Sequence record: OR896839.1
Length of the DNA: 38,265 nt
Origin: Salmonella phage S147_CPL00262
Reading direction: 5' to 3' (one strand)
In this document: positions 1 to 37,749 of the stretch, piece by piece
How the letters are laid out: each line of letters begins with the position of its first letter
Position numbering within the stretch: position 1 is the stretch's first letter
Notes under the pieces: generated by a model
What the model saw: the letters and a program-made list of their open reading frames with translations, nothing else
Told to the model about the DNA's origin: nothing
Databases searched by the model: none
Position numbers and translations under genes: made by a program

Positions 1-1764
1 ATGAGCGACACCCAAGCAAACCGTAATGCGCTAATCATCGCGCAGCTTAAGGGTGACTTCGTGGCCTTCCTGTTCGTATTGTGGAAGGCTTTGGCTCTCC
101 CGCCGCCAACTAAGTGTCAGATTGATATGGCCCGGTGTCTGGCTAACGGAGACAACAAGAAGTTTATCCTACAGGCTTTCCGTGGTATCGGTAAGTCATT
201 CATCACCTGTGCGTTCGTTGTGTGGACGCTATGGCGTGACCCTCAGTTGAAGATACTGATTGTCTCTGCATCCAAAGAACGTGCGGACGCTAACTCCATC
301 TTCATCAAGAACATCATTGACCTGCTGCCATTCTTGGCTGAGTTAAAGCCTCGCCCCGGTCAGCGTGACTCTGTGATTAGTTTCGATGTTGGCCCTGCCA
401 AGCCTGACCACTCTCCGTCTGTGAAGTCGGTGGGCATCACTGGTCAGTTGACTGGTAGCCGTGCTGATATCATCATAGCGGATGACGTTGAGATTCCGTC
501 TAACTCCGCAACTCAAGGTGCCCGTGAGAAGCTGTGGACTCTGGTGCAGGAATTTGCTGCGCTTCTGAAACCACTGCCGACTTCTCGCGTTATCTACCTT
601 GGCACGCCTCAAACCGAAATGACCTTGTACAAGGAACTCGAAGATAACCGTGGGTACACCACAATCATCTGGCCTGCGCTCTATCCGCGTAGCCGTGAGG
701 AAGACTTGTACTATGGCGACCGTCTGGCCCCGATGCTCCGCGAAGAGTTCAACGATGGGTTCGAGATGCTCCAAGGTCAACCAACTGACCCCGTGCGCTT
801 CGATATGGAAGACCTGCGTGAGCGTGAGTTGGAATACGGCAAGGCTGGCTTCACTTTGCAGTTCATGCTCAACCCGAACCTGAGTGATGCCGAGAAGTAC
901 CCCTTACGCCTCCGTGACGCTATCGTGTGCGGTCTGGACTTCGAGAAAGCCCCAATGCATTACCAGTGGCTTCCGAACCGTCAGAATCGCAATGAAGAGC
1001 TTCCTAACGTGGGACTTAAGGGTGATGATATTCATAGCTATCATTCGTGCAGCCAGAACACTGGACAGTACCAGCAACGCATCCTCGTGATTGACCCTAG
1101 TGGTCGCGGTAAGGATGAGACTGGTTACGCAGTGTTGTTCACCCTGAATGGCTACATCTATCTGATGGAAGCTGGCGGGTTCCGCGATGGTTATTCCGAT
1201 AAGACCCTTGAGTCCCTCGCTAAGAAAGCGAAGCAGTGGAAGGTTCAGACAGTGGTCTTCGAGAGTAACTTCGGGGATGGTATGTTTGGTAAGGTATTCA
1301 GCCCTGTGCTCCTGAAACACCATGCAGCGCAACTTGAAGAGATTCGTGCTCGTGGTATGAAGGAACTACGCATTTGTGATACGCTGGAGCCTGTACTCTC
1401 TACGCACCGCCTTGTGATTCGTGACGAGGTGATTCGTGAGGACTACCAGACTGCCCGTGACGCTGATGGTAAGCATGACGTTCGCTATTCGCTGTTCTAC
1501 CAGTTGACCCGCATGGCCCGTGAGAAGGGCGCTGTGGCACATGACGACCGACTTGATGCGTTAGCATTGGGTGTAGAGTTCTTACGCTCTACGATGGAAC
1601 TGGACGCCGTGAAGGTGGAAGCTGAGGTGCTTGAGGCGTTCTTAGAGGAACACATGGAGCACCCAATCCATTCGGCTGGTCACGTAGTCACCTCTATGGT
1701 TGACGGTATGGAACTCTATTGGGAGGATGACGATGTGAATAGCAACAGGTTCATTGACTGGTAG
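1..1764 (+). CDS. 19: Terminase large subunit (DNA maturase B), gene 19
   Basis: 587-aa ORF; N-terminus [31 protein letters not shown]... and overall length match T7/T3 gp19 as recalled; SD AAGGAG lies at the very end of the window (38251-38256) immediately upstream when the window is circularised. Confidence 0.95.
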
Positions 1765-1785
1765 TTATGCATATTGAGTGCATAA
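1765..1785 (+). other. Perfect 7-bp stem hairpin (TTATGCA / TGCATAA, 7-nt loop) directly after the gene 19 stop
   Basis: Inverted repeat read directly in the sequence; function unknown. Confidence 0.3.
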
Positions 1786-1845
1786 GGAATCATTGAGACC
1801 ACGGATGGTCACTTTAAGAAACTCCTTAAGAATCAATGAGTTTGA

Positions 1846-1868
1846 ATTAACCCTCACTAAAGGGAGAG
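1846..1868 (+). promoter_or_regulatory. T3-type phage RNA polymerase promoter (phiOR-equivalent)
   Basis: AATTAACCCTCACTAAAGGGAGA exact match to T3 RNAP promoter consensus. Confidence 0.85.
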
Positions 1869-2008
1869 AGGGGACTTAAAGCTACTATACAGGTTAGTCA
1901 TTCAGGTTATGCAATGACCCTTTATGCACTTTAAGTCCACCTCTATGATTGGTGATATTATCATTGTATAATCACCCTACCTTAGAGCAACTGAAAGGAG
2001 GTGGCTCA

Positions 2009-2158
2009 ATGTTACGCTTGCTGATTGCCCTGCTGCGTCATAGAGTCACTTGGCGATTTCTTCTGGTACTTACTGCTGCCCTTGGGTACGCAGGTCTTAC
2101 TGACCACCTCGGTCAACTGGAAGTGGCCTTTTGCTCTATACTCTCTTGTGGGGATTAA
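2009..2158 (+). CDS. 19.5: gp19.5-like small protein
   Basis: 49-aa ORF MLRLLIALLRHRVTWRFLLVL... preceded by SD AAAGGAGG; same length and similar sequence to T7 gp19.5 as recalled. Confidence 0.7.
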   Translation: MLRLLIALLRHRVTWRFLLVLTAALGYAGLTDHLGQLEVAFCSILSCGD

Positions 2159-2240
2159 ATTATTGTTGATGACCGACAAGCGGCTCTGAGGGATTCGTAG
2201 GTATAGTTTCACTACACCAACTCATCCCTGTAGAGTCAAC

Positions 2241-2714
2241 CCTAAAGGTTATACCTAAAGATGCCCTGTAGTTCGTAATGGTCTTACAGGGTCTTCTGGT
2301 GTCTCCTAGCTATCCCTTCGGGATGCGCCTATGGTCTCACCTATGGTGTGGCCTTACCTAAAGTGGTTGCCTAAAGAGACCCTTTAAGAATTTACCACAA
2401 AAATCTGAATGGGTATCTCACAGTTCAAGAACCCAAAGTACCCCCCATAGCCCTCCTAAAGCCACCTAAAGCCAGCCCTACCCCTAGGGTTTAACCTTCG
2501 GTTAACCTTGAGTATCTCCTCAAGTGGCCTATAGGATAGCCTAAAGTGTTGCCTAAAGTCAATACCTAAAGTGGTGGGTGGCTTAAAGAGGCCTTAAAGA
2601 GTGTCCTAGTGTACCAGTTCGATAGTACATCTCTATGTGTCCCTATCTGTTAGCCTCATAAAGTAAACCCTAAAGCCGCCACCTAAAGACCAGACCTAAA
2701 GCCATCACCTAAAG
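2241..2714. repeat. Irregularly spaced CCTAAAG heptamer array typical of T7-group genome ends (concatemer junction region)
   Basis: At least 14 copies of CCTAAAG (plus CTTAAAG variants) between 2241 and 2714; non-coding. Confidence 0.8.
2416..2646 (+). other. Putative mature genome left end and single copy of the terminal repeat
   Basis: TCTCACAGTT... at 2416 resembles the T7/T3 left-end sequence (recalled); no adjacent second copy in the window, consistent with a circularised assembly or concatemer junction; the right boundary is a guess. Confidence 0.35.
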
Positions 2715-2797
2715 AGCAACACTATCTTAAAGACAACCAGACCGATAGACCCACTGTTAACCTGTAGTGATGCCCTGTAGTTCTCTGTAGTCATTTC

Positions 2798-2820
2798 ATT
2801 AACCCTCACTAAAGGGAATA
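2798..2820 (+). promoter_or_regulatory. T3-type phage RNA polymerase promoter (phiOL-equivalent)
   Basis: ATTAACCCTCACTAAAGGGAATA. Confidence 0.75.
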
Positions 2821-2870
2821 AGGGATACTTAAAGGGTAATTAAAGATTTAATAAAAGATTAAATTAATGG

Positions 2871-2900
2871 TTGACTTTAAGTTACCTTTAAGGCTATTAT
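2871..2900 (+). promoter_or_regulatory. Host sigma70 early promoter (A1-equivalent)
   Basis: -35 TTGACT at 2871-2876, 18-bp spacer, -10 TATTAT at 2895-2900. Confidence 0.6.
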
Positions 2901-3001
2901 TCATCACGTCAACGGGACAACGGCCTTAAAGCCACTCCCTGAGATACCGGAGTCAACCGGATAAGTAGACAGCCTGATAAGTCATACGAAAAAAACAGGC
3001 A

Positions 3002-3030
3002 TTGACAACATGAAGTAAACGCAGTAAGAT
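3002..3030 (+). promoter_or_regulatory. Host sigma70 early promoter (A2-equivalent)
   Basis: -35 TTGACA at 3002-3007, 17-bp spacer, -10 TAAGAT; closely resembles T7 A2 as recalled. Confidence 0.7.
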
Positions 3031-3112
3031 GTATCACATAGCGTCAACCAACCGATTCGGTGTCTTCTAGGTGACTTAAGCGCACCACGGCACATAAAGC
3101 GAAACAAAATGG

Positions 3113-20286: not shown

Positions 20287-20607
20287 ATGGGATTCTTCAA
20301 GAAAATCAAGAAGGCCGTTAAGAAAGTCGTGAAGGAAGTTACCAGACCAGTCGAGAAGGCAGGTAAGGAAGTCGGTAAAGTCGTTGGCGGTGCGCTGGGT
20401 GCAGGTAAGCAGGAGATTATCCAACAAGAGGCTCCAGCACCAGTAGTGACTGCGCCACCTCCAGCACAGATTGTGGATGTACCTGAACAGGATAAGGCTG
20501 AGGGTGAGGATGAGGCACAAACCGAGAGCGCACGTAAGAAGGCCCGCGCTGGTGGTAAGAAGTCTCTGAGTGTAGCCCGTAGCTCCGGCGGTGGTATTAA
20601 CATCTAA
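20287..20607 (+). CDS. 7.3: gp7.3-like virion/tail assembly protein
   Basis: 106-aa ORF MGFFKKIKKAVKKVVKEV... in the position of T7 gp7.3; no gene 7 equivalent upstream. Confidence 0.75.
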   Translation: MGFFKKIKKAVKKVVKEVTRPVEKAGKEVGKVVGGALGAGKQEIIQQEAPAPVVTAPPPAQIVDVPEQDKAEGEDEAQTESARKKARAGGKKSLSVARSSGGGINI

Positions 20608-31198: not shown

Positions 31199-34100
31199 AT
31201 GAGCTACGATAAGAACAAACCTAGCGAGTTCGATGGGTTATTTCAAAAAGCGGCAGACAATCATGGGGTCTCCTATGACCTGCTTCGTAAATTAGCATTC
31301 AACGAATCCAGTTTTAATCCAAAGGCCAAATCCCCAACTGGCCCGAAGGGTCTCATGCAGTTCACCAAAGGTACAGCCACTGCGCTTGGCCTAAAGGTTA
31401 CTGACGACGATGACGATGACCGTTACAACCCTGAGTTGGCTGTGGATGCAGCCGCTCGTCACCTGAGTGACCTCATTCGGAAGTACGATGGGGATGAACT
31501 CAAAGCTGCCTTGGCATATAATCAGGGCGAGGGGCGCAACGGTGCTCCACAGATACAGGCTTATGACAAAGGCGATTGGGCTTCAATCTCTGAGGAAGGT
31601 CGTAACTATATGCGTAACCTGATGGACGTAGCTAACAGTCCTCGCAAGGGGGACTTGGAGGCGTTCGGCGGCATCACCCCAAAGGCTAAGGGCATTCCAT
31701 CGGGGGATGCATTTGCTGGAATCGGGAAGAAGCAGACGGTAGGAACTGACCTGCCGGAGTCAACTGGATTCAAAGTGGAGGGTAAAGAGCAGAAAGCACC
31801 TAACGTGCCGTATGCTAAGGATTTTTGGGAAAAGACTGGAACAACACTGGACGAGTTTAATTCTCGTTCAACCTTCTTCGGAATCGGAGATGCCACAAGT
31901 GCAGAACTTCACAACTCCGTATTGGGTGTGGCTTTTCGCGCTGCTCGTAGTGATGACGGTTTTGATTTATTCAAGGACACCATTACGCCGACTCGCTGGA
32001 ACAGCCATACGTGGACTCCAGAAGAGTTAGAGCGCATCCGTAAGGAAGTGAAGAACCCATCGTACATCAACGTAGTCACTGGAGGCTCTCCTGAGAATCT
32101 GGACGCCCTCATTAAGATGGCGAATGACAACTACGAGATGGACGCGCGGTCTGCCGATGCTGGTGTTGGTGCCAAACTTACTGCTGGTATCGTCGGTGCT
32201 GGTGTAGACCCGCTGAGTTACGTGCCGCTAGTAGGCGTAACCGGGAAGGGTCTCAAGGTGGTTAACAAGGCTTTCATTGTTGGTACTCAAAGTGCTGGCC
32301 TCGCTGTTGCCTCTGAGGGTATCCGTACATCAATTGCTGGTGGAGAAGCCCACTATGCTGATGCTGCTTTAGGCGGTCTGATGTTCGGTGCCGGGATGAG
32401 TGCAATCAGTGACGCTATCGCCGCTGGTATTCGCCGTTCCCGTGGGACTGAGGTCGTTAATGATTTCGCTCCTATGGCACACCGCTTGGAAGCCCGTGAG
32501 ACCGCTCTGAACACTGGTGGGGAAGACCTGACCCGTATGCCTAGCGAGAACCGTGTGTTCGACCGTGAGCACGCTGGCGTTGAGTATTCACCTCTGGAGA
32601 CAGAGCCGGGTGCCGTTGTGTTGCCTCAAGGTCAAATCCTGAGCGACACCAACCCGTTGAACCCTCAGACTCTTAGCGAGTTCGAGGCGGTCAACCCTGA
32701 GCGTGCCTCTCGTGGTATCTCTTTGGGCGGCTTCACTGAGATTGGCTTGAAGACTCTCCGCTCTGAGAACCCGACTGTTCGCTCCATTGCGAGTGACCTT
32801 GTGCGTTCTCCAACAGGGATGGAATCAGGCTCTAATGGTAAGTTCGGTGCGACTGCTTCTGACATTAAGGAGCGGCTCCACGCGAACAATCAGCGCACCT
32901 ACAATCAGCTTTATGATGCTGTGCGTACTGCAATGAAAGACCCTGAGTTCTCCACAGGTGGGGCAACAATGAGCCGTAAGGAAATCCGACAGGAAATCTA
33001 CAAGCGTGCAGCCTTGGCGATTGAGCGACCTGAGCTTCAAGCAAACCTGACAAAGGGTGAGCGGAACGTGATGAACATCCTCAAGCAACACTTTGACCTC
33101 AAACGTGAAATCATGGAGAACCCGTCAATCTTCGGCAACACCAAGGCGGTCAGTATCTTCCCCGGCTCACGCCACAAGGGAACCTACGTGCCAAACGTGT
33201 ACGACCGCGCTATCAAGATTGAGATGGTTAAACGTTACGGTAATGATGGCTTGCAGCGAGCAATCGCGGAGTCATGGTTGACGTCTTATCGTGCTCGTCC
33301 AGAAGTCAAGGCGAGGGTCGATGAGTACCTGATGGAACTTAACGGTCTCAAATCCGTGCAGGAAGTTACGCCTGAGATGGTGCAGAAGCACGCGATGGAT
33401 AAGGCGTATGGTATTTCACACACTGACCAGTTCTCTGCCTCCTCTGTCATTGAGGATAACATTGAGGGTCTGGTGGGTATCGAGAACAACAACTTCTTGG
33501 AAGCCCGTAACATGTTCGACAGTGACATGGCGGTGACTCTCCCTGATGGTAACACGTTCTCTGTGAATGACCTGCGTACCTATGACATGGCTGAAATTCT
33601 GCCTGCATACGACCGACGAGTAGATGGTGATGTTGCAATCATGGGCGGTTCCGGTAAGACTACCAAAGACCTGAAAGATGAAATCATGGCGCTGGATAAG
33701 CAGTCAGAGGGTAACGGCACACTGAAAGGTGAAGTGGAAGCTCTCAAGGATACCGTGAAGATTCTGACTGGTCGTGCTCGTAGGAACCCGGAAGGCGCTT
33801 GGGGTACAGCCCTGCGCTCCGTAAATGACCTCACGTTCTTTGCTAAGAACGCCTATATGGGCGCACAGAACGTTACTGAAATCGCTGGTATGCTGGCGAA
33901 GGGTAACGTCTCTGCGATAACTCATGGCATCCCTATGATTAACGATTGGGTCAACCGTGGTAAACCGCTTCGTGCCTCTGAGATTAAGGAGATACACGGG
34001 ATGGTGTTCGGTAAGGAACTAGACCAACTAATCCGTCCGGGACGTGAAGACCACGTGCGCCGACTCCGGGAGTCTACGGACACCAGCGCTGCGGTTGCCA

Positions 34101-35161
34101 ATGTGGTCGGTACGATTCGTTTCGGCACTCAAGAGTTGGCTGCACGTTCTCCTTGGACAATGCTCCTAAACGGAACATCAAACTACATTCTTGATGCTGC
34201 CCGTCAGGGTGTGCTTGGGGATGTGGCTGGAGCGGCCCTTGCTGGGAAAGCCTCTAAGTTCGGTAAGGCAAACTACCTTAAGTCTGCCTCTATCAGCCCT
34301 GAGCAGTGGAATGGAATCAAGCAGTTGTTCAGAGACCATGCGACTCGTGGAGAAGACGGTAAGTTCACCATTCGTGACAAACAGGCTTTCGCTAACGACC
34401 CACGTTCAATGGACTTGTGGCGACTGGCTGATAAGGTGGCGGATGAGACTATACTGCGACCTCACAAGGTTTCCTCACAGGACTCCAAAGCGTTCGGTGC
34501 AGGGGTGAAGATGGTGATGCAGTTTAAGAACTTCGTCATCAAGTCCCTTAACTCCCGGTTCGTCCGTAGCTTCTACGAGGCAACTAAGAACAACCGTGCG
34601 TTAGACCAAGCGTTGACTCATATCATCTCTTTGGGTCTAGCTGGTGGTTACTACGTTGCGCAGGCGCACCTTAAGGCCGCAAGCCTACAGGAGCACAAAC
34701 GTAAGGAGTACCTCAAGAACGCCCTTGACCCTAAGATGATTGCTCATGCATCAATCTCTCGTAGTTCACACTTAGGCTCACCATTGAGTATCTACGACAT
34801 GTTCGCTGGGATGGTTGGTAGCGATACCTATAAGTACACCCGCTCTACTGTACTCCCTAAAGAGTCCGAGAAGCGCGACCCTAACAAGGCAGTGACAGGT
34901 AGACAGGTGGCTTCAACTATCGCAGGTGCAATTGGTGAGCAGGTTCCGGGTTTAGGTTTTGTTGGCTCTGTGGGTGCAACAGCTATTAACGCCGCTTCCC
35001 TGCTGTCTTCTCCAAACAAGGCTACCGCTCTGGAGTTCCGTACAGGACTCTTCAACACCTCTCGTGAGTTGATTCCTAATGACCCGCTATCGCAGCAACT
35101 CATTATGAAAATCTACGAGGCCAACGGTATCCGCATAAAGGAGACGCCGAAGAAACAATAA
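31199..35161 (+). CDS. 16: Internal virion (core) protein gp16 with N-terminal lytic transglycosylase domain
   Basis: 1320-aa ORF; N-terminal SLT-like motif ...AFNESSFNPKAKSPTGPKGLMQFTKGTA... Confidence 0.93.
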   Translation: MSYDKNKPSEFDGLFQKAADNHGVSYDLLRKLAFNESSFNPKAKSPTGPKGLMQFTKGTATALGLKVTDDDDDDRYNPELAVDAAARHLSDLIRKYDGDELKAALAYNQGEGRNGAPQIQAYDKGDWASISEEGRNYMRNLMDVANSPRKGDLEAFGGITPKAKGIPSGDAFAGIGKKQTVGTDLPESTGFKVEGKEQKAPNVPYAKDFWEKTGTTLDEFNSRSTFFGIGDATSAELHNSVLGVAFRAARSDDGFDLFKDTITPTRWNSHTWTPEELERIRKEVKNPSYINVVTGGSPENLDALIKMANDNYEMDARSADAGVGAKLTAGIVGAGVDPLSYVPLVGVTGKGLKVVNKAFIVGTQSAGLAVASEGIRTSIAGGEAHYADAALGGLMFGAGMSAISDAIAAGIRRSRGTEVVNDFAPMAHRLEARETALNTGGEDLTRMPSENRVFDREHAGVEYSPLETEPGAVVLPQGQILSDTNPLNPQTLSEFEAVNPERASRGISLGGFTEIGLKTLRSENPTVRSIASDLVRSPTGMESGSNGKFGATASDIKERLHANNQRTYNQLYDAVRTAMKDPEFSTGGATMSRKEIRQEIYKRAALAIERPELQANLTKGERNVMNILKQHFDLKREIMENPSIFGNTKAVSIFPGSRHKGTYVPNVYDRAIKIEMVKRYGNDGLQRAIAESWLTSYRARPEVKARVDEYLMELNGLKSVQEVTPEMVQKHAMDKAYGISHTDQFSASSVIEDNIEGLVGIENNNFLEARNMFDSDMAVTLPDGNTFSVNDLRTYDMAEILPAYDRRVDGDVAIMGGSGKTTKDLKDEIMALDKQSEGNGTLKGEVEALKDTVKILTGRARRNPEGAWGTALRSVNDLTFFAKNAYMGAQNVTEIAGMLAKGNVSAITHGIPMINDWVNRGKPLRASEIKEIHGMVFGKELDQLIRPGREDHVRRLRESTDTSAAVANVVGTIRFGTQELAARSPWTMLLNGTSNYILDAARQGVLGDVAGAALAGKASKFGKANYLKSASISPEQWNGIKQLFRDHATRGEDGKFTIRDKQAFANDPRSMDLWRLADKVADETILRPHKVSSQDSKAFGAGVKMVMQFKNFVIKSLNSRFVRSFYEATKNNRALDQALTHIISLGLAGGYYVAQAHLKAASLQEHKRKEYLKNALDPKMIAHASISRSSHLGSPLSIYDMFAGMVGSDTYKYTRSTVLPKESEKRDPNKAVTGRQVASTIAGAIGEQVPGLGFVGSVGATAINAASLLSSPNKATALEFRTGLFNTSRELIPNDPLSQQLIMKIYEANGIRIKETPKKQ

Positions 35162-35181: not shown

Positions 35182-35230
35182 GGTCACATTCTGGCCTCTT
35201 CTCTTAATGTTAATTTACAAAGGAGGTCAC

Positions 35231-36838
35231 ATGGCTACAAATATTAAGACCGTGATGACTTACCCGCTGGATGGCTCCACTACGGACTTTAATATTCCGT
35301 TTGAGTATCTGGCTCGTAAGTTCGTCCGAGTGACCCTTATCGGTGTTGACCGAAAGGAACTCATCTTGAATCAAGACTATCGTTTTGCAACTAAGACCAC
35401 AATCTCCACAACGAGAGCATTGGGGCCAGCGGACGGTTATAACCTTATCGAGATTCGTCGGTACACCTCAGCGACTGAACGTCTGGTTGACTTTACGGAT
35501 GGCTCAATCCTCCGTGCGTATGACCTGAACATCTCACAGGTGCAGACCCTCCACGTTGCTGAGGAAGCGCGTGACCTTACCGCTGATACGATTGGCGTTA
35601 ACAACGATGGTGACTTGGATGCTCGTGGTCGTCGTATTGTGAACGTTGCGGACGCTAAAGACCCCGGTGATGCAATAACTTTAGGTCAAGTCTCTCGGTG
35701 GAATGCGTCGGCCCTGAACTCTGCGAATGCTGCGGCTGCGTCTCAACAGGCCGCTAAGACCTCAGAGAACAACTCGAAGGTATCTGAGAACAACGCAAAG
35801 ACCTCCGAGAACAACGCGCATCAATGGGCGCAGCGTGCAGAGGACTCTCCGGTTCAGGGTAGCGAGTTCTCTGCGTATCACTATTCACGGAAGGCCTCCA
35901 AGAGTGCTGCCGCCGCAAGTACGTCTGAGGGGAATGCAAAGACCTCTGAGAACAACGCAAAGACCTCCGAGAACAACGCAAAGACTTCTGAGAACAACGC
36001 AAAGACTTCTGAGAACAACGCCGCTACCAGTGCTGCAACCGCTATCGCTGAGGCCGCCAAGTTGACAAACATGAATGATTTTGCGACTACCATCAAGGCT
36101 GTTAACACAGCTACCTACTCGGTTTCGTGGAAAGGTGATGGTATGTTTGACGGCTCGGTCACTGCTGGCAAGGGACTCACAGTGTCTAATGGTGACGTCG
36201 TCATTAACCAAGGAGCGGGTAACTGGGTTCTCCTGAATGGGCACACAGCAGTTGGCGTTAACTACACATCCAACGGCATTCGTACAACTAACCGCCTCAA
36301 CCAGCGTGTGGATGACTACACATGGGAAGCGACGGGGCAGTATTTTGCCAAAGTAGTCCACGTATACCAAGCAGGCAGTCAAACAGTTCCAGAGTTCTTC
36401 TACGAGTTCCGAAACAATGGTACTATGCAGTTGGGCCAAGTTAGGGCGATTGGTGGAGATGAATCCTACTTCCAGCACAACGTTAATATCCAGTGGGGTG
36501 GACGCGGCGCACGTTATCAGGAAAATGGTGACATTGTATCTATACAGGGGGATGCGTCCATCTTCCGAGAATTTGGAGGAACACTTAGTGGTACAATTAA
36601 CTGGCTTAAGAATGTTAACATTCAGGACGTTTGGTTAGGTGGTCAGGAGTGGTGGGGTTCTTTCCGTGGCAACGGGAATAGCCGAACTGACTGGGCATTG
36701 GGCGGAGGCTCAGTGTGTACTGGCGTGACTCAGGATATGACCGCAGGTGAGCGTAATGCTTGGATTGATGGTATATTCCATCGTAAGGTCTGGATTCGTT
36801 ATGGCTCTGGGCAGCAGCGAATCATTGCTTCTGTTTAA
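35231..36838 (+). CDS. 17: Tail fiber protein, gene 17
   Basis: 535 aa from the ATG with SD AAAGGAGG; N-terminal ~150 aa match the conserved T7/T3 fiber virion-attachment domain (MATNIKTVMTYPLDGSTTDFNIPFEYLARKFV...) as recalled; central heptad repeats; distal domain not recognised. Confidence 0.93.
   Translation: MATNIKTVMTYPLDGSTTDFNIPFEYLARKFVRVTLIGVDRKELILNQDYRFATKTTISTTRALGPADGYNLIEIRRYTSATERLVDFTDGSILRAYDLNISQVQTLHVAEEARDLTADTIGVNNDGDLDARGRRIVNVADAKDPGDAITLGQVSRWNASALNSANAAAASQQAAKTSENNSKVSENNAKTSENNAHQWAQRAEDSPVQGSEFSAYHYSRKASKSAAAASTSEGNAKTSENNAKTSENNAKTSENNAKTSENNAATSAATAIAEAAKLTNMNDFATTIKAVNTATYSVSWKGDGMFDGSVTAGKGLTVSNGDVVINQGAGNWVLLNGHTAVGVNYTSNGIRTTNRLNQRVDDYTWEATGQYFAKVVHVYQAGSQTVPEFFYEFRNNGTMQLGQVRAIGGDESYFQHNVNIQWGGRGARYQENGDIVSIQGDASIFREFGGTLSGTINWLKNVNIQDVWLGGQEWWGSFRGNGNSRTDWALGGGSVCTGVTQDMTAGERNAWIDGIFHRKVWIRYGSGQQRIIASV
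35752..35814 (+). repeat. Three tandem 21-bp repeats encoding AKTSENN / SKVSENN heptads
   Basis: GCTAAGACCTCAGAGAACAAC / TCGAAGGTATCTGAGAACAAC / GCAAAGACCTCCGAGAACAAC. Confidence 0.85.
35936..36019 (+). repeat. Four perfect tandem 21-bp repeats encoding (AKTSENN)x4
   Basis: GCAAAGAC(C/T)TC(T/C)GAGAACAAC x4, differing only at synonymous positions; preceded by a degenerate copy. Confidence 0.9.
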
Positions 36839-36848
36839 GGAGAACAAT

Positions 36849-37235
36849 ATGGTTAAGTATGAAAACTGGAAGTGGACTAACGGTGAACAAGTAGGGACTG
36901 ATCGTTATATCGCCGAGATTAACATTGGGGAACTCTCTTGGTACGACCTGACGGAAGACTTGGATAAGCAAGGAGAACGTGTTGTCGTCGGTGTGTCCAG
37001 CGATGGAAGCGTCAACTGGTTCACCGATGGTCGGGTATCAGGTGTTCACGCCCCGTCTGATGGGACAAGTGTTGTTGTGGTTGATAGCGTCCCGTTCACT
37101 CAGGAGGACTATCGACACTTCATCTTGGTGGGCAATGAGTTCCAGCGTAAGGAAAGTACATTAACTCCGCGCACTAAGGAAGACATCATGGCTGACTTAA
37201 TTAAACTTCAAGAGGAACTGAAAGCTATGGCATAG
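36849..37235 (+). CDS. Hypothetical protein (128 aa) between tail fiber and holin; function unknown
   Basis: ORF MVKYENWKWTNGEQVGTDRYIAEINIGELSWYDL... with SD AAGGAGA 7 nt upstream, immediately after the gene 17 stop; the T7 gene order as recalled has no counterpart here. Confidence 0.7.
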   Translation: MVKYENWKWTNGEQVGTDRYIAEINIGELSWYDLTEDLDKQGERVVVGVSSDGSVNWFTDGRVSGVHAPSDGTSVVVVDSVPFTQEDYRHFILVGNEFQRKESTLTPRTKEDIMADLIKLQEELKAMA

Positions 37236-37275: not shown

Positions 37276-37479
37276 ATGTTATCTTTTGACTTCAATAACG
37301 AGGTCGTTAAGGCTGCGCCGATTGTTGGCACAGGGGTCGCTGATGGTGCGGCCCGACTCTTTTGGGGACTATCGTTAAACGAATGGTTCTACGTTGCAGC
37401 TATCGCCTACACAGTGGTTCAGATTGGTGCCAAGGTAGTCGATAAGATGATTGACTGGAAACGTGCAAATAAGGAGTAA
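37276..37479 (+). CDS. 17.5: Holin, gene 17.5
   Basis: 67-aa ORF with a central hydrophobic segment and charged C-terminus; same length as T7 gp17.5; SD AAGGAGA. Confidence 0.85.
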   Translation: MLSFDFNNEVVKAAPIVGTGVADGAARLFWGLSLNEWFYVAAIAYTVVQIGAKVVDKMIDWKRANKE

Positions 37480-37482
37480 CCT

Positions 37483-37749
37483 ATGAGCGACAAGACTTTA
37501 ATCAAGCTGCTGGAGATGCTGGACACGGAGATGGCACAGCGTATGCTTGCTGACCTCCAGAGCGAGGAACGACGAACGCCGCAGCTTTACAACGCAATCG
37601 GCAAACTGTTAGACCGCCATAAGTTCCAAATCAGTAAGCTGACCCCGGATGAGAACATCCTTGGCGGTCTCGCGGCTGGTCTGGAAGACTACAACAAAGT
37701 GGTCGGCCCTAATGGTCTGACTGACGATGAGACTATCACGCTACAGTAA
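37483..37749 (+). CDS. 18: Terminase small subunit (DNA maturase A), gene 18
   Basis: 88-aa ORF in the position of T7 gp18. Confidence 0.88.
   Translation: MSDKTLIKLLEMLDTEMAQRMLADLQSEERRTPQLYNAIGKLLDRHKFQISKLTPDENILGGLAAGLEDYNKVVGPNGLTDDETITLQ

Follow-up and report, generated by a model that had tools for sequence, protein, structure and literature searches.

A 21-nt tandem repeat in gene 17 of Salmonella phage S147_CPL00262 encodes heptads of a putative tail fibre rod

The tail fibre gene and its context

This analysis concerns a tandem repeat with a 21-nt period inside gene 17, the tail fibre gene of Salmonella phage S147_CPL00262, within a 38,265-nt stretch of phage DNA (sequence record OR896839.1, one strand; hereafter the window). 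Gene 17 occupies positions 35231–36838 on the + strand and encodes 535 amino acids (aa) plus a stop codon; its reading frame is open from 35207 to 36838, and the start annotated in relatives corresponds to the ATG at 35231 (MATNIK...). Klebsiella phage GlastosBack (OR896841.1), a T3-like member of the genus Teetrevirus, carries a gene 17 with 99.9% identity to it. The product encoded in the window matched PF03906, the T7 tail-fibre N-terminal domain, over residues 1–155 (194.4 bits against a cut-off of 25.2, E 1.2e-57) as well as tail-fibre PHROGs, and residues 1–306 could be aligned to T7 gp17 (phmmer, E 6.4e-82). The PF03906 match delimits an N-terminal tail-attachment domain (35231–35695, +), the only part matched by the solved N-terminal structures of T7 gp17. 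Gene order was likewise T7-like: a 1320-aa gp16-like open reading frame (ORF; 31199–35161) precedes gene 17, while ORFs 37276–37479 and 37483–37749 sit at the positions of the holin and the small terminase subunit in relatives. Judged by its N-terminal domain and gene position, the gene 17 product classifies as a T7-type tail fibre protein, gp17.

Repeat units in gene 17

Two blocks of near-identical 21-nt (7-codon) units were identified from the sequence itself, Tandem Repeats Finder and in-frame dissection, both of them in frame in gene 17. Block 1 (35753–35815, +) consists of three units encoding AKTSENN, SKVSENN and AKTSENN (DNA in this order: GCTAAGACCTCAGAGAACAAC, TCGAAGGTATCTGAGAACAAC and GCAAAGACCTCCGAGAACAAC), and was reported by Tandem Repeats Finder at 35752–35817 with a period of 21, 3.1 copies and a score of 69. 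It is separated by a 33-residue linker (AHQWAQRAEDSPVQGSEFSAYHYSRKASKSAAA) from the block 2 array, which is headed by a degenerate unit, ASTSEGN (35915–35935, +), and continues with four units all encoding AKTSENN (35936–36019, +). Block 2 produced the highest Tandem Repeats Finder score of the window (151; 35936–36021, period 21, 4.1 copies, 95% matches). Its four units share 19–21 of 21 nt in pairwise comparison and, as the preliminary description of this DNA had observed, differ only at synonymous third positions (ACC/ACT and TCT/TCC). Downstream follow the heptads AATSAAT and AIAEAAK. The preliminary description placed the blocks at 35752–35814 and 35918–36019, which located both correctly with a codon register 1–3 nt off; it missed a further unit in the same heptad register just upstream, AAASQQA (35732–35752, +), which is duplicated in relatives.

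Codon shuffling of gene 17 (300 replicates) did not produce even two tandem 21-nt copies with up to 2 mismatches in a single case, compared with four observed, and no other run of at least three such copies was found elsewhere in the 38 kb window. The repeat is thus not a product of chance. An exact 23-nt direct repeat is common to both blocks, with one copy in unit 3 of block 1 (35795–35817, +) and the other in unit 2 of block 2 (35957–35979, +). Head-to-tail copies, high DNA identity and whole-unit differences between related genomes together define the region as an in-frame minisatellite. A phase-variable contingency locus was considered and rejected: the 21-nt unit is a multiple of 3, and every variant seen in relatives stays in frame.

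The same repeats give rise to repetitive ORFs in other frames, namely a 112-aa out-of-frame ORF on the + strand (35727–36065) and three antisense ORFs with repetitive translations (35754–36002, 35881–36108 and 35885–36478; together spanning 35754–36478, − strand). They appear in the ORF list on both strands and had been regarded as spurious from the outset; none matches any PHROG family, and we likewise reject them as real genes. Such repetitive ORFs are to be ignored in annotation.

Copy number and unit turnover among relatives

The closest relatives were recovered by exact-sequence cluster look-up, the best match from a large protein search being only 79% identical. Five relatives carry a gene 17 of the same length and at first sight display no polymorphism, which becomes visible in an in-register comparison. 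The window type, shared with GlastosBack and F2M1C, has one AAASQQA and four block 2 AKTSENN units, while Keithstache, GP-5, RCF and NL_ZS_3 (92–94% nucleotide identity) have two AAASQQA and three block 2 AKTSENN units; alignment of the window type with these four phages contains two exact 21-nt in-register gaps. Across relatives, block 1 has five units in ECA2, four in F1M1C and three in Poynor, and block 2 has three or four. Whole-unit copy-number differences of this kind are what a comparison of gene 17 across related isolates had been expected to reveal if the repeat were active, and repeat number is not identical in all of them.

Synonymous variants within the units were also informative. 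Four of the block 1 units of ECA2 and three of those of F1M1C are identical in DNA. Block 2 of the window reads ACC TCT, ACC TCC, ACT TCT and ACT TCT at the two variable codons, and that of F2M1C, 98.6% identical in this region and equal in unit number, reads ACC TCT, ACC TCT, ACC TCC and ACT TCT. In GP-5, all three block 2 units carry TCA where close relatives have TCT (three of three units in Keithstache). NL_ZS_3 has lost SKVSENN from block 1 and has an AKTSENN-type unit in its place, and three relatives from ENA have ASTSEGN-AKTSEGN followed by three AKTSENN units. Taken together, these patterns are evidence for turnover that appears to be ongoing among the relatives, as opposed to ancient fixed differences. 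The earlier suggestion of a recent expansion by slippage or unequal recombination gains support from the 21-nt insertions and deletions, the DNA-identical neighbouring units of ECA2 and F1M1C, the unit order of F2M1C and the variant common to all GP-5 units.

Phages whose tail fibres are identical or almost so bear different host labels. The identical protein is ascribed to Salmonella (S147_CPL00262), that of GlastosBack (99.9% nucleotide identity) to Klebsiella pneumoniae, that of vB_PdeP_F2M1C (97.3% over the first 75% of the gene) to Pantoea deleyi and that of RCF (93.6%) to Escherichia coli. These hosts may have in common something that the receptor-binding part recognises, or the labels may reflect only the strains used for isolation.

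Two of the records have anomalies at this gene. In Pantoea phage vB_PdeP_F2M1C (record part 1525–3059), gene 17 is annotated as 403 aa followed by two small hypothetical ORFs, with DNA 97% identical up to that point; the distal domain could really be truncated or replaced, or the cause could be a frameshift or sequencing error. Yersinia phage vB_YenP_WW2 (1–2638) has short tail fibre and transglycosylase fragments at the start of the record, ahead of a full gene 17, which looks like an assembly or circular-permutation artefact.

Predicted structure of the shaft

The AlphaFold2 model, which is a monomer (mean pLDDT 72.9, pTM 0.29), predicted two shaft helices by DSSP. Helix 1 (residues 151–201; 35681–35833, +), with mean pLDDT of 74–89 per ten-residue block, contains the pre-unit AAASQQA and block 1. 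Helix 2 (residues 215–286; 35873–36088, +; block means 78–92) contains block 2 and ends in the conserved motif AAKLTNMNDF, of which the KLxNxN anchor is kept in relatives. The helices are parted by a non-helical insertion (residues 202–214; 35834–35872, +; RAEDSPVQGSEFS) with Pro and Gly residues and a short predicted strand at 207–209. This insertion lies in a linker (35816–35914, residues 196–228; WAQRAEDSPVQGSEFSAYHYSRKA) that is kept in relatives with quite different heptad arrays; a similar motif (WAIKESPVEG...) is carried by ViciousJeremy, and T7 gp17 has a 5-residue gap at the insertion. The heptad register is offset across the linker by 5 residues (equivalent to −2). The linker may be a built-in hinge or a beta-layer-like element of the rod.

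Residues 103–204 of the query, block 1 included, align with T7 gp17 free of gaps, so placing unit position 1 (Ala/Ser) on A168/A175/A182 and position 4 (Ser) on F171/F178/F185/W199. Because these columns carry the T7 heptad pattern, we infer from the alignment that unit positions 1 and 4 correspond to core positions a and d. Each unit on either side of the linker has A or S first and S at position 4 (ALNSANA, AAASQQA, AKTSENN..., ASKSAAA, ASTSEGN, AATSAAT), and this A-x-x-S-x-x-x register is unbroken over 5 consecutive heptads on the N side and 7 on the C side, non-repeated ones included. The consensus of an 82-sequence family alignment is AxxSxxxAxxSxxx. Two hallmarks of a coiled coil are therefore present, seven-residue periodicity and helical secondary structure, the latter as an AlphaFold2 prediction and not a measurement.

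Searches for structural homologues of the shaft itself gave little. Foldseek of the model against the Protein Data Bank (PDB) matched the N-terminal domain only (approximately residues 1–164 of T7 gp17), leaving the shaft without a match, and a PDB sequence search with the shaft alone hit nothing but depolymerase 7LZJ, in its unmodelled part, and relatives of it. Pfam contained no repeat or coiled-coil family matching the shaft of the gene 17 protein. Membership of YadA_stalk (PF05662) was considered and rejected, the protein having no match to it at E ≤1; the matches seen in relatives (20.5–28.1 bits against a cut-off of 28.4) fall at residues 134–176, upstream of the repeats.

In T7, the proximal region (approximately residues 160–250) is described as a triple-helical coiled coil by AlphaFold3, molecular dynamics and atomic force microscopy, and is not experimentally resolved (bioRxiv 10.1101/2025.10.22.683886). 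By analogy, the rod encoded here is most likely a trimeric (parallel three-stranded) alpha-helical coiled coil. The preliminary description had placed the repeats where T7 gp17 has its coiled-coil shaft, and the PF03906 match, the gap-free T7 alignment over 103–204 and the AlphaFold2 helices over both blocks support this.

Shaft length

Shaft length was measured between conserved anchors, namely a GQV motif, the Trp of the linker and the KLxN motif. The N-side segment was 46, 53 or 60 aa long and the C-side segment 64, 71 or 78 aa, for a total of 117, 124 or 131 aa; anchor-to-anchor differences were multiples of 7 aa. One shaft was an outlier (C side 83, total 136). A total of 124 residues was found in 10 of the 14 distinct shafts of this architecture, with a correlation of r = −0.50 between N-side and C-side length in a sample that is small and composed of related, not phylogenetically independent, sequences.

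Distribution of the heptad unit

Many of 120 metagenomic gp17 homologues contain runs of 2–11 [AS]KxSExx units. A scan of IMG/VR with a degenerate IUPAC DNA pattern (2.7 units) matched at least 120 contigs; among the matches listed, 41 of 120 host ORFs had a T7-type N-terminal domain and 79 did not, with unit runs of up to 16. All six of the ORFs lacking the T7-type domain that were scanned matched tail-fibre PHROGs. The tail fibre of MezzoGao, a Webervirus siphophage, has about 17 units, and that of ViciousJeremy (Teetrevirus) has its first 166 residues in common with the gene 17 protein before continuing into another shaft of the same plan, AKTSETN units included. With the repeat masked by the low-complexity filter, a tblastn search of the phage collection with the block 2 peptide returned only the 7 closest relatives and was uninformative on spread. 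Given the distribution seen in the other searches, the [AS]KxSExx unit is a general rod element of tail fibres, and copy-number variation in it is the rule. The interest of the present repeat is lowered because the heptad is so common in tail fibres. In our literature search, GlastosBack surfaced only in a taxonomy list, and this repeat had no earlier description.

Interpretation and alternative explanations

In our judgement the locus is most likely an in-frame 21-nt minisatellite in gene 17 of a T3-like podophage, each unit of which would supply one heptad of a trimeric rod and whose units would turn over by slippage or recombination. Each 21-nt unit would add a heptad of the form [A/S]-K-x-S-E-N-N to the proximal rod, whose core would be small and polar, with Ala/Ser at a (unit position 1) and Ser at d (unit position 4), and which would be broken once by the conserved Pro/Gly-containing linker. 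Gain or loss of whole units would preserve the heptad phase; if the helix is canonical (~1.5 Å rise per residue), one unit would correspond to ~1 nm of rod length. Replication slippage or unequal homologous recombination between near-identical 21-mers could gain, lose and homogenise units, and the exact 23-mer common to both blocks could permit exchange or conversion between the blocks too. Direct repeats of about 20 bp are efficient sites of deletion in T7-type phages. From the unit sequences we infer slippage or unequal recombination, together with inter-block conversion, as the most economical mechanism, and any effect of unit turnover on infection would likewise be presumptive.

Several observations weigh against this reading. 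The core columns are Ala/Ser and Ser, both small and polar, and do not form a classical hydrophobic a/d core. No solved structure covers the shaft, since the PDB entries of T7 gp17 end at approximately residue 164, and monomer models, such as this one with its pTM of 0.29, easily render polar low-complexity sequence as long single helices. Unit turnover itself is read from genome comparison. Finally, a 124-residue shaft is common to all 13 phages of the 90% identity cluster, which between them have at least 3 different arrays. This constancy arises because two indels compensate each other: in the closest clade, one additional AAASQQA upstream is offset by one AKTSENN fewer in block 2, and the protein stays 535 aa long. 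The anticipated effect of copy number on shaft length was borne out among relatives, with one qualification. Copy number does vary, and the lengths of 117, 124 and 131 aa exist among relatives, while length is constant in the 13-member cluster; a change of shaft length is thus true only of more distant relatives. Strict conservation of length, when tested, held in the 90% cluster and failed in the more distant relatives (117 and 131 exist).

A tentative extension, to which we give perhaps one chance in several, is that rod length is under stabilising selection, such that the arrays on either side of the Pro/Gly linker trade units. One AAASQQA gained upstream and one AKTSENN lost downstream would shift the linker by one heptad and leave the distance from attachment domain to distal part at 124 residues. 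If this were true, the arrays would act as a self-correcting length gauge for a fibre fitting a fixed virion geometry, and the natural variants of 117, 124 and 131 residues would form a ready-made series for relating rod length to the stowing and deployment of the fibre.

It is unlikely, though the best placed of the competing explanations, that the arrays serve mainly, or persist, as homology patches for the swapping of tail-fibre modules, and so represent a recombination linker and not a length element. Nucleotide identity of 90–96% to about 45 phage records, many of them from Klebsiella, Citrobacter, Serratia, Leclercia, Escherichia and Enterobacter phages (window 35231–35728), ends abruptly at query position 521–522 (approximately aa 166), before the first heptad unit, in what the alignments present as a sharp mosaic boundary between attachment domain and shaft. 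ViciousJeremy follows the same pattern, with the N-terminal 166 aa in common and another shaft thereafter. Module boundaries at domain junctions are, however, expected with or without repeats. Nucleotide similarity to ECA2, Poynor and F1M1C ends at query position 794, inside block 2, as a patch of exchange would suggest, but the ends of megablast alignments are imprecise and protein similarity to ECA2 and Poynor runs past block 2 to the KLTNMNDFA motif. The occurrence of the unit in many unrelated tail-fibre families, and the 72–77% nucleotide identity of block 2 to tail-fibre genes of Webervirus siphophages, also fit module swapping, although an identity of 72–77% across 113 nt falls short of what recent exchange would leave and could be explained by the shared peptide.

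Somewhat less probable again is that the repeat region is no coiled coil but a polar spacer, flexible and either mostly disordered or a single helix, joining the attachment domain to the distal receptor-binding part; the 7-residue period would then merely reflect the duplication unit. The AKTSENN units are composed of A, K, T, S, E and N and lack Leu, Ile or Val at fixed positions, as such a spacer might; the absent Pfam repeat or coiled-coil match, the low pTM and the lack of a solved structure over the region also fit it. Against it stand an A-x-x-S register that reaches the non-repeated flanking heptads and the entire family, and natural indels in multiples of 7 aa, distant relatives included. 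Moreover, T7 gp17, with its proximal rod described as triple-helical, has Ala and Phe/Trp in these columns, and the heptad motif occurs in the unmodelled N-terminal part of the Klebsiella phage depolymerase DpK2, described as a triple helical bundle.

We see very little prospect that the identical units are kept by convergent selection on peptide and codon usage, without recent duplication or homogenisation. The heptad peptide is indeed strongly conserved across very distant tail fibres, but neighbouring units agree at synonymous sites within a phage and differ between phages (three TCA in GP-5, three TCT in Keithstache, four identical 21-mers in ECA2), and copy number changes in exact 21-nt steps. 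An artefact of short-read assembly is the least credible of all: tandem repeats are in general prone to mis-assembly and nothing specific suggests it here, whereas the longest array (84–105 nt) is below typical read length and the four-unit arrangement recurs in GlastosBack, F2M1C and several ENA contigs.

Host range is determined by tail fibres, whose rods are commonly regarded as inert spacers. Gene 17 offers a case, documented at nucleotide resolution, of a rod built from exchangeable one-heptad units, with gain, loss and homogenisation of units among phages that share more than 90% identity. For comparative work, gene 17 is best aligned in heptad register, given that two compensating 21-nt indels go unseen in a plain nucleotide alignment when gene length is equal. 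For phage engineering, the natural length variants (117, 124 and 131 residues) are of use together with the insertion points, which are likely to be tolerated.

Other features of the window

The gene downstream of gene 17 (36747–37235, +) most likely starts at the ATG at 36849 (MVKYENWKWT..., 128 aa), 11 nt past the gene 17 stop codon; the product from this start is 97% identical to the 'tail fiber assembly protein' of GP-5. In the GlastosBack record, this gene starts at the equivalent of 36756 and overlaps the end of gene 17. T7 itself is not known to have a gene between 17 and 17.5.

A second repeat with a 21-nt period lies at 20299–20374 (3.5 copies, 70% matches, 10% indels), within a 106-aa lysine-rich ORF (20287–20607, +; MGFFKKIKKAVKKVVKEV...), which we take to resemble T7 gp7.3. 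Here too, a small virion protein reiterates a heptad-like unit. Finally, the left genome end has a cluster of short tandem repeats at 2455–2867 (CCTAAAGCCA, CCTAAAGCCAACA, TAAAGGGTAAT and TAATTAAAGATT).

Comparison with known systems

The repeat is of a known type, and the finding is sound, fairly ordinary and not a new kind of system. The nearest counterpart is the proximal half-fibre of T7/T3 gp17, which is homologous, with the same N-terminal domain, the same position of the region between attachment domain and distal part, and the same heptad phase. The T7 heptads, however, are of the FRNEAET type, with Ala and Phe/Trp in the core columns and no near-identical DNA repeats, whereas this phage has an Ala/Ser and Ser core, two near-identical 21-nt arrays and an extra Pro/Gly insertion (DSPVQ...).

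DpK2, the depolymerase of Klebsiella phage RAD2 (PDB 7LZJ), is a trimeric receptor-binding protein with AKTSEDN AKSSENA AKNSE heptads. These fall in a stretch (AKTSEDNAKSSENAAKNSE, residues about 130–173) that precedes the first modelled residue (191), and in the authors' description the N-terminal part that was not modelled is an extended triple helical bundle, seen at low resolution (PMC8552709). In contrast to the present protein, DpK2 is a tailspike with a beta-helix depolymerase and not a T7-type fibre; with the bundle unmodelled, it offers no atomic evidence for the core.

Tandem [AS]KxSExx units are likewise found in tail fibres of Webervirus (T1-like) and other phages, with about 17 in MezzoGao and runs of 3–16 in IMG/VR. 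Those fibres differ in having other N- and C-terminal domains and virion types, usually more copies and often a 14-residue super-repeat.

A looser likeness exists to the adhesin stalks of the YadA_stalk family (PF05662), through sub-threshold matches in some gp17 relatives at residues 134–176, the junction into the first helix; phage fibres and trimeric autotransporter adhesin stalks share such transitions (PMC4786415). The gene 17 protein has no such match, and those of its relatives do not reach the gathering score and precede the repeats. In the adenovirus fibre shaft, a variable number of short repeats makes fibre length differ between types, through a 15-residue triple beta-spiral unit that is unrelated in sequence to the heptads described here.

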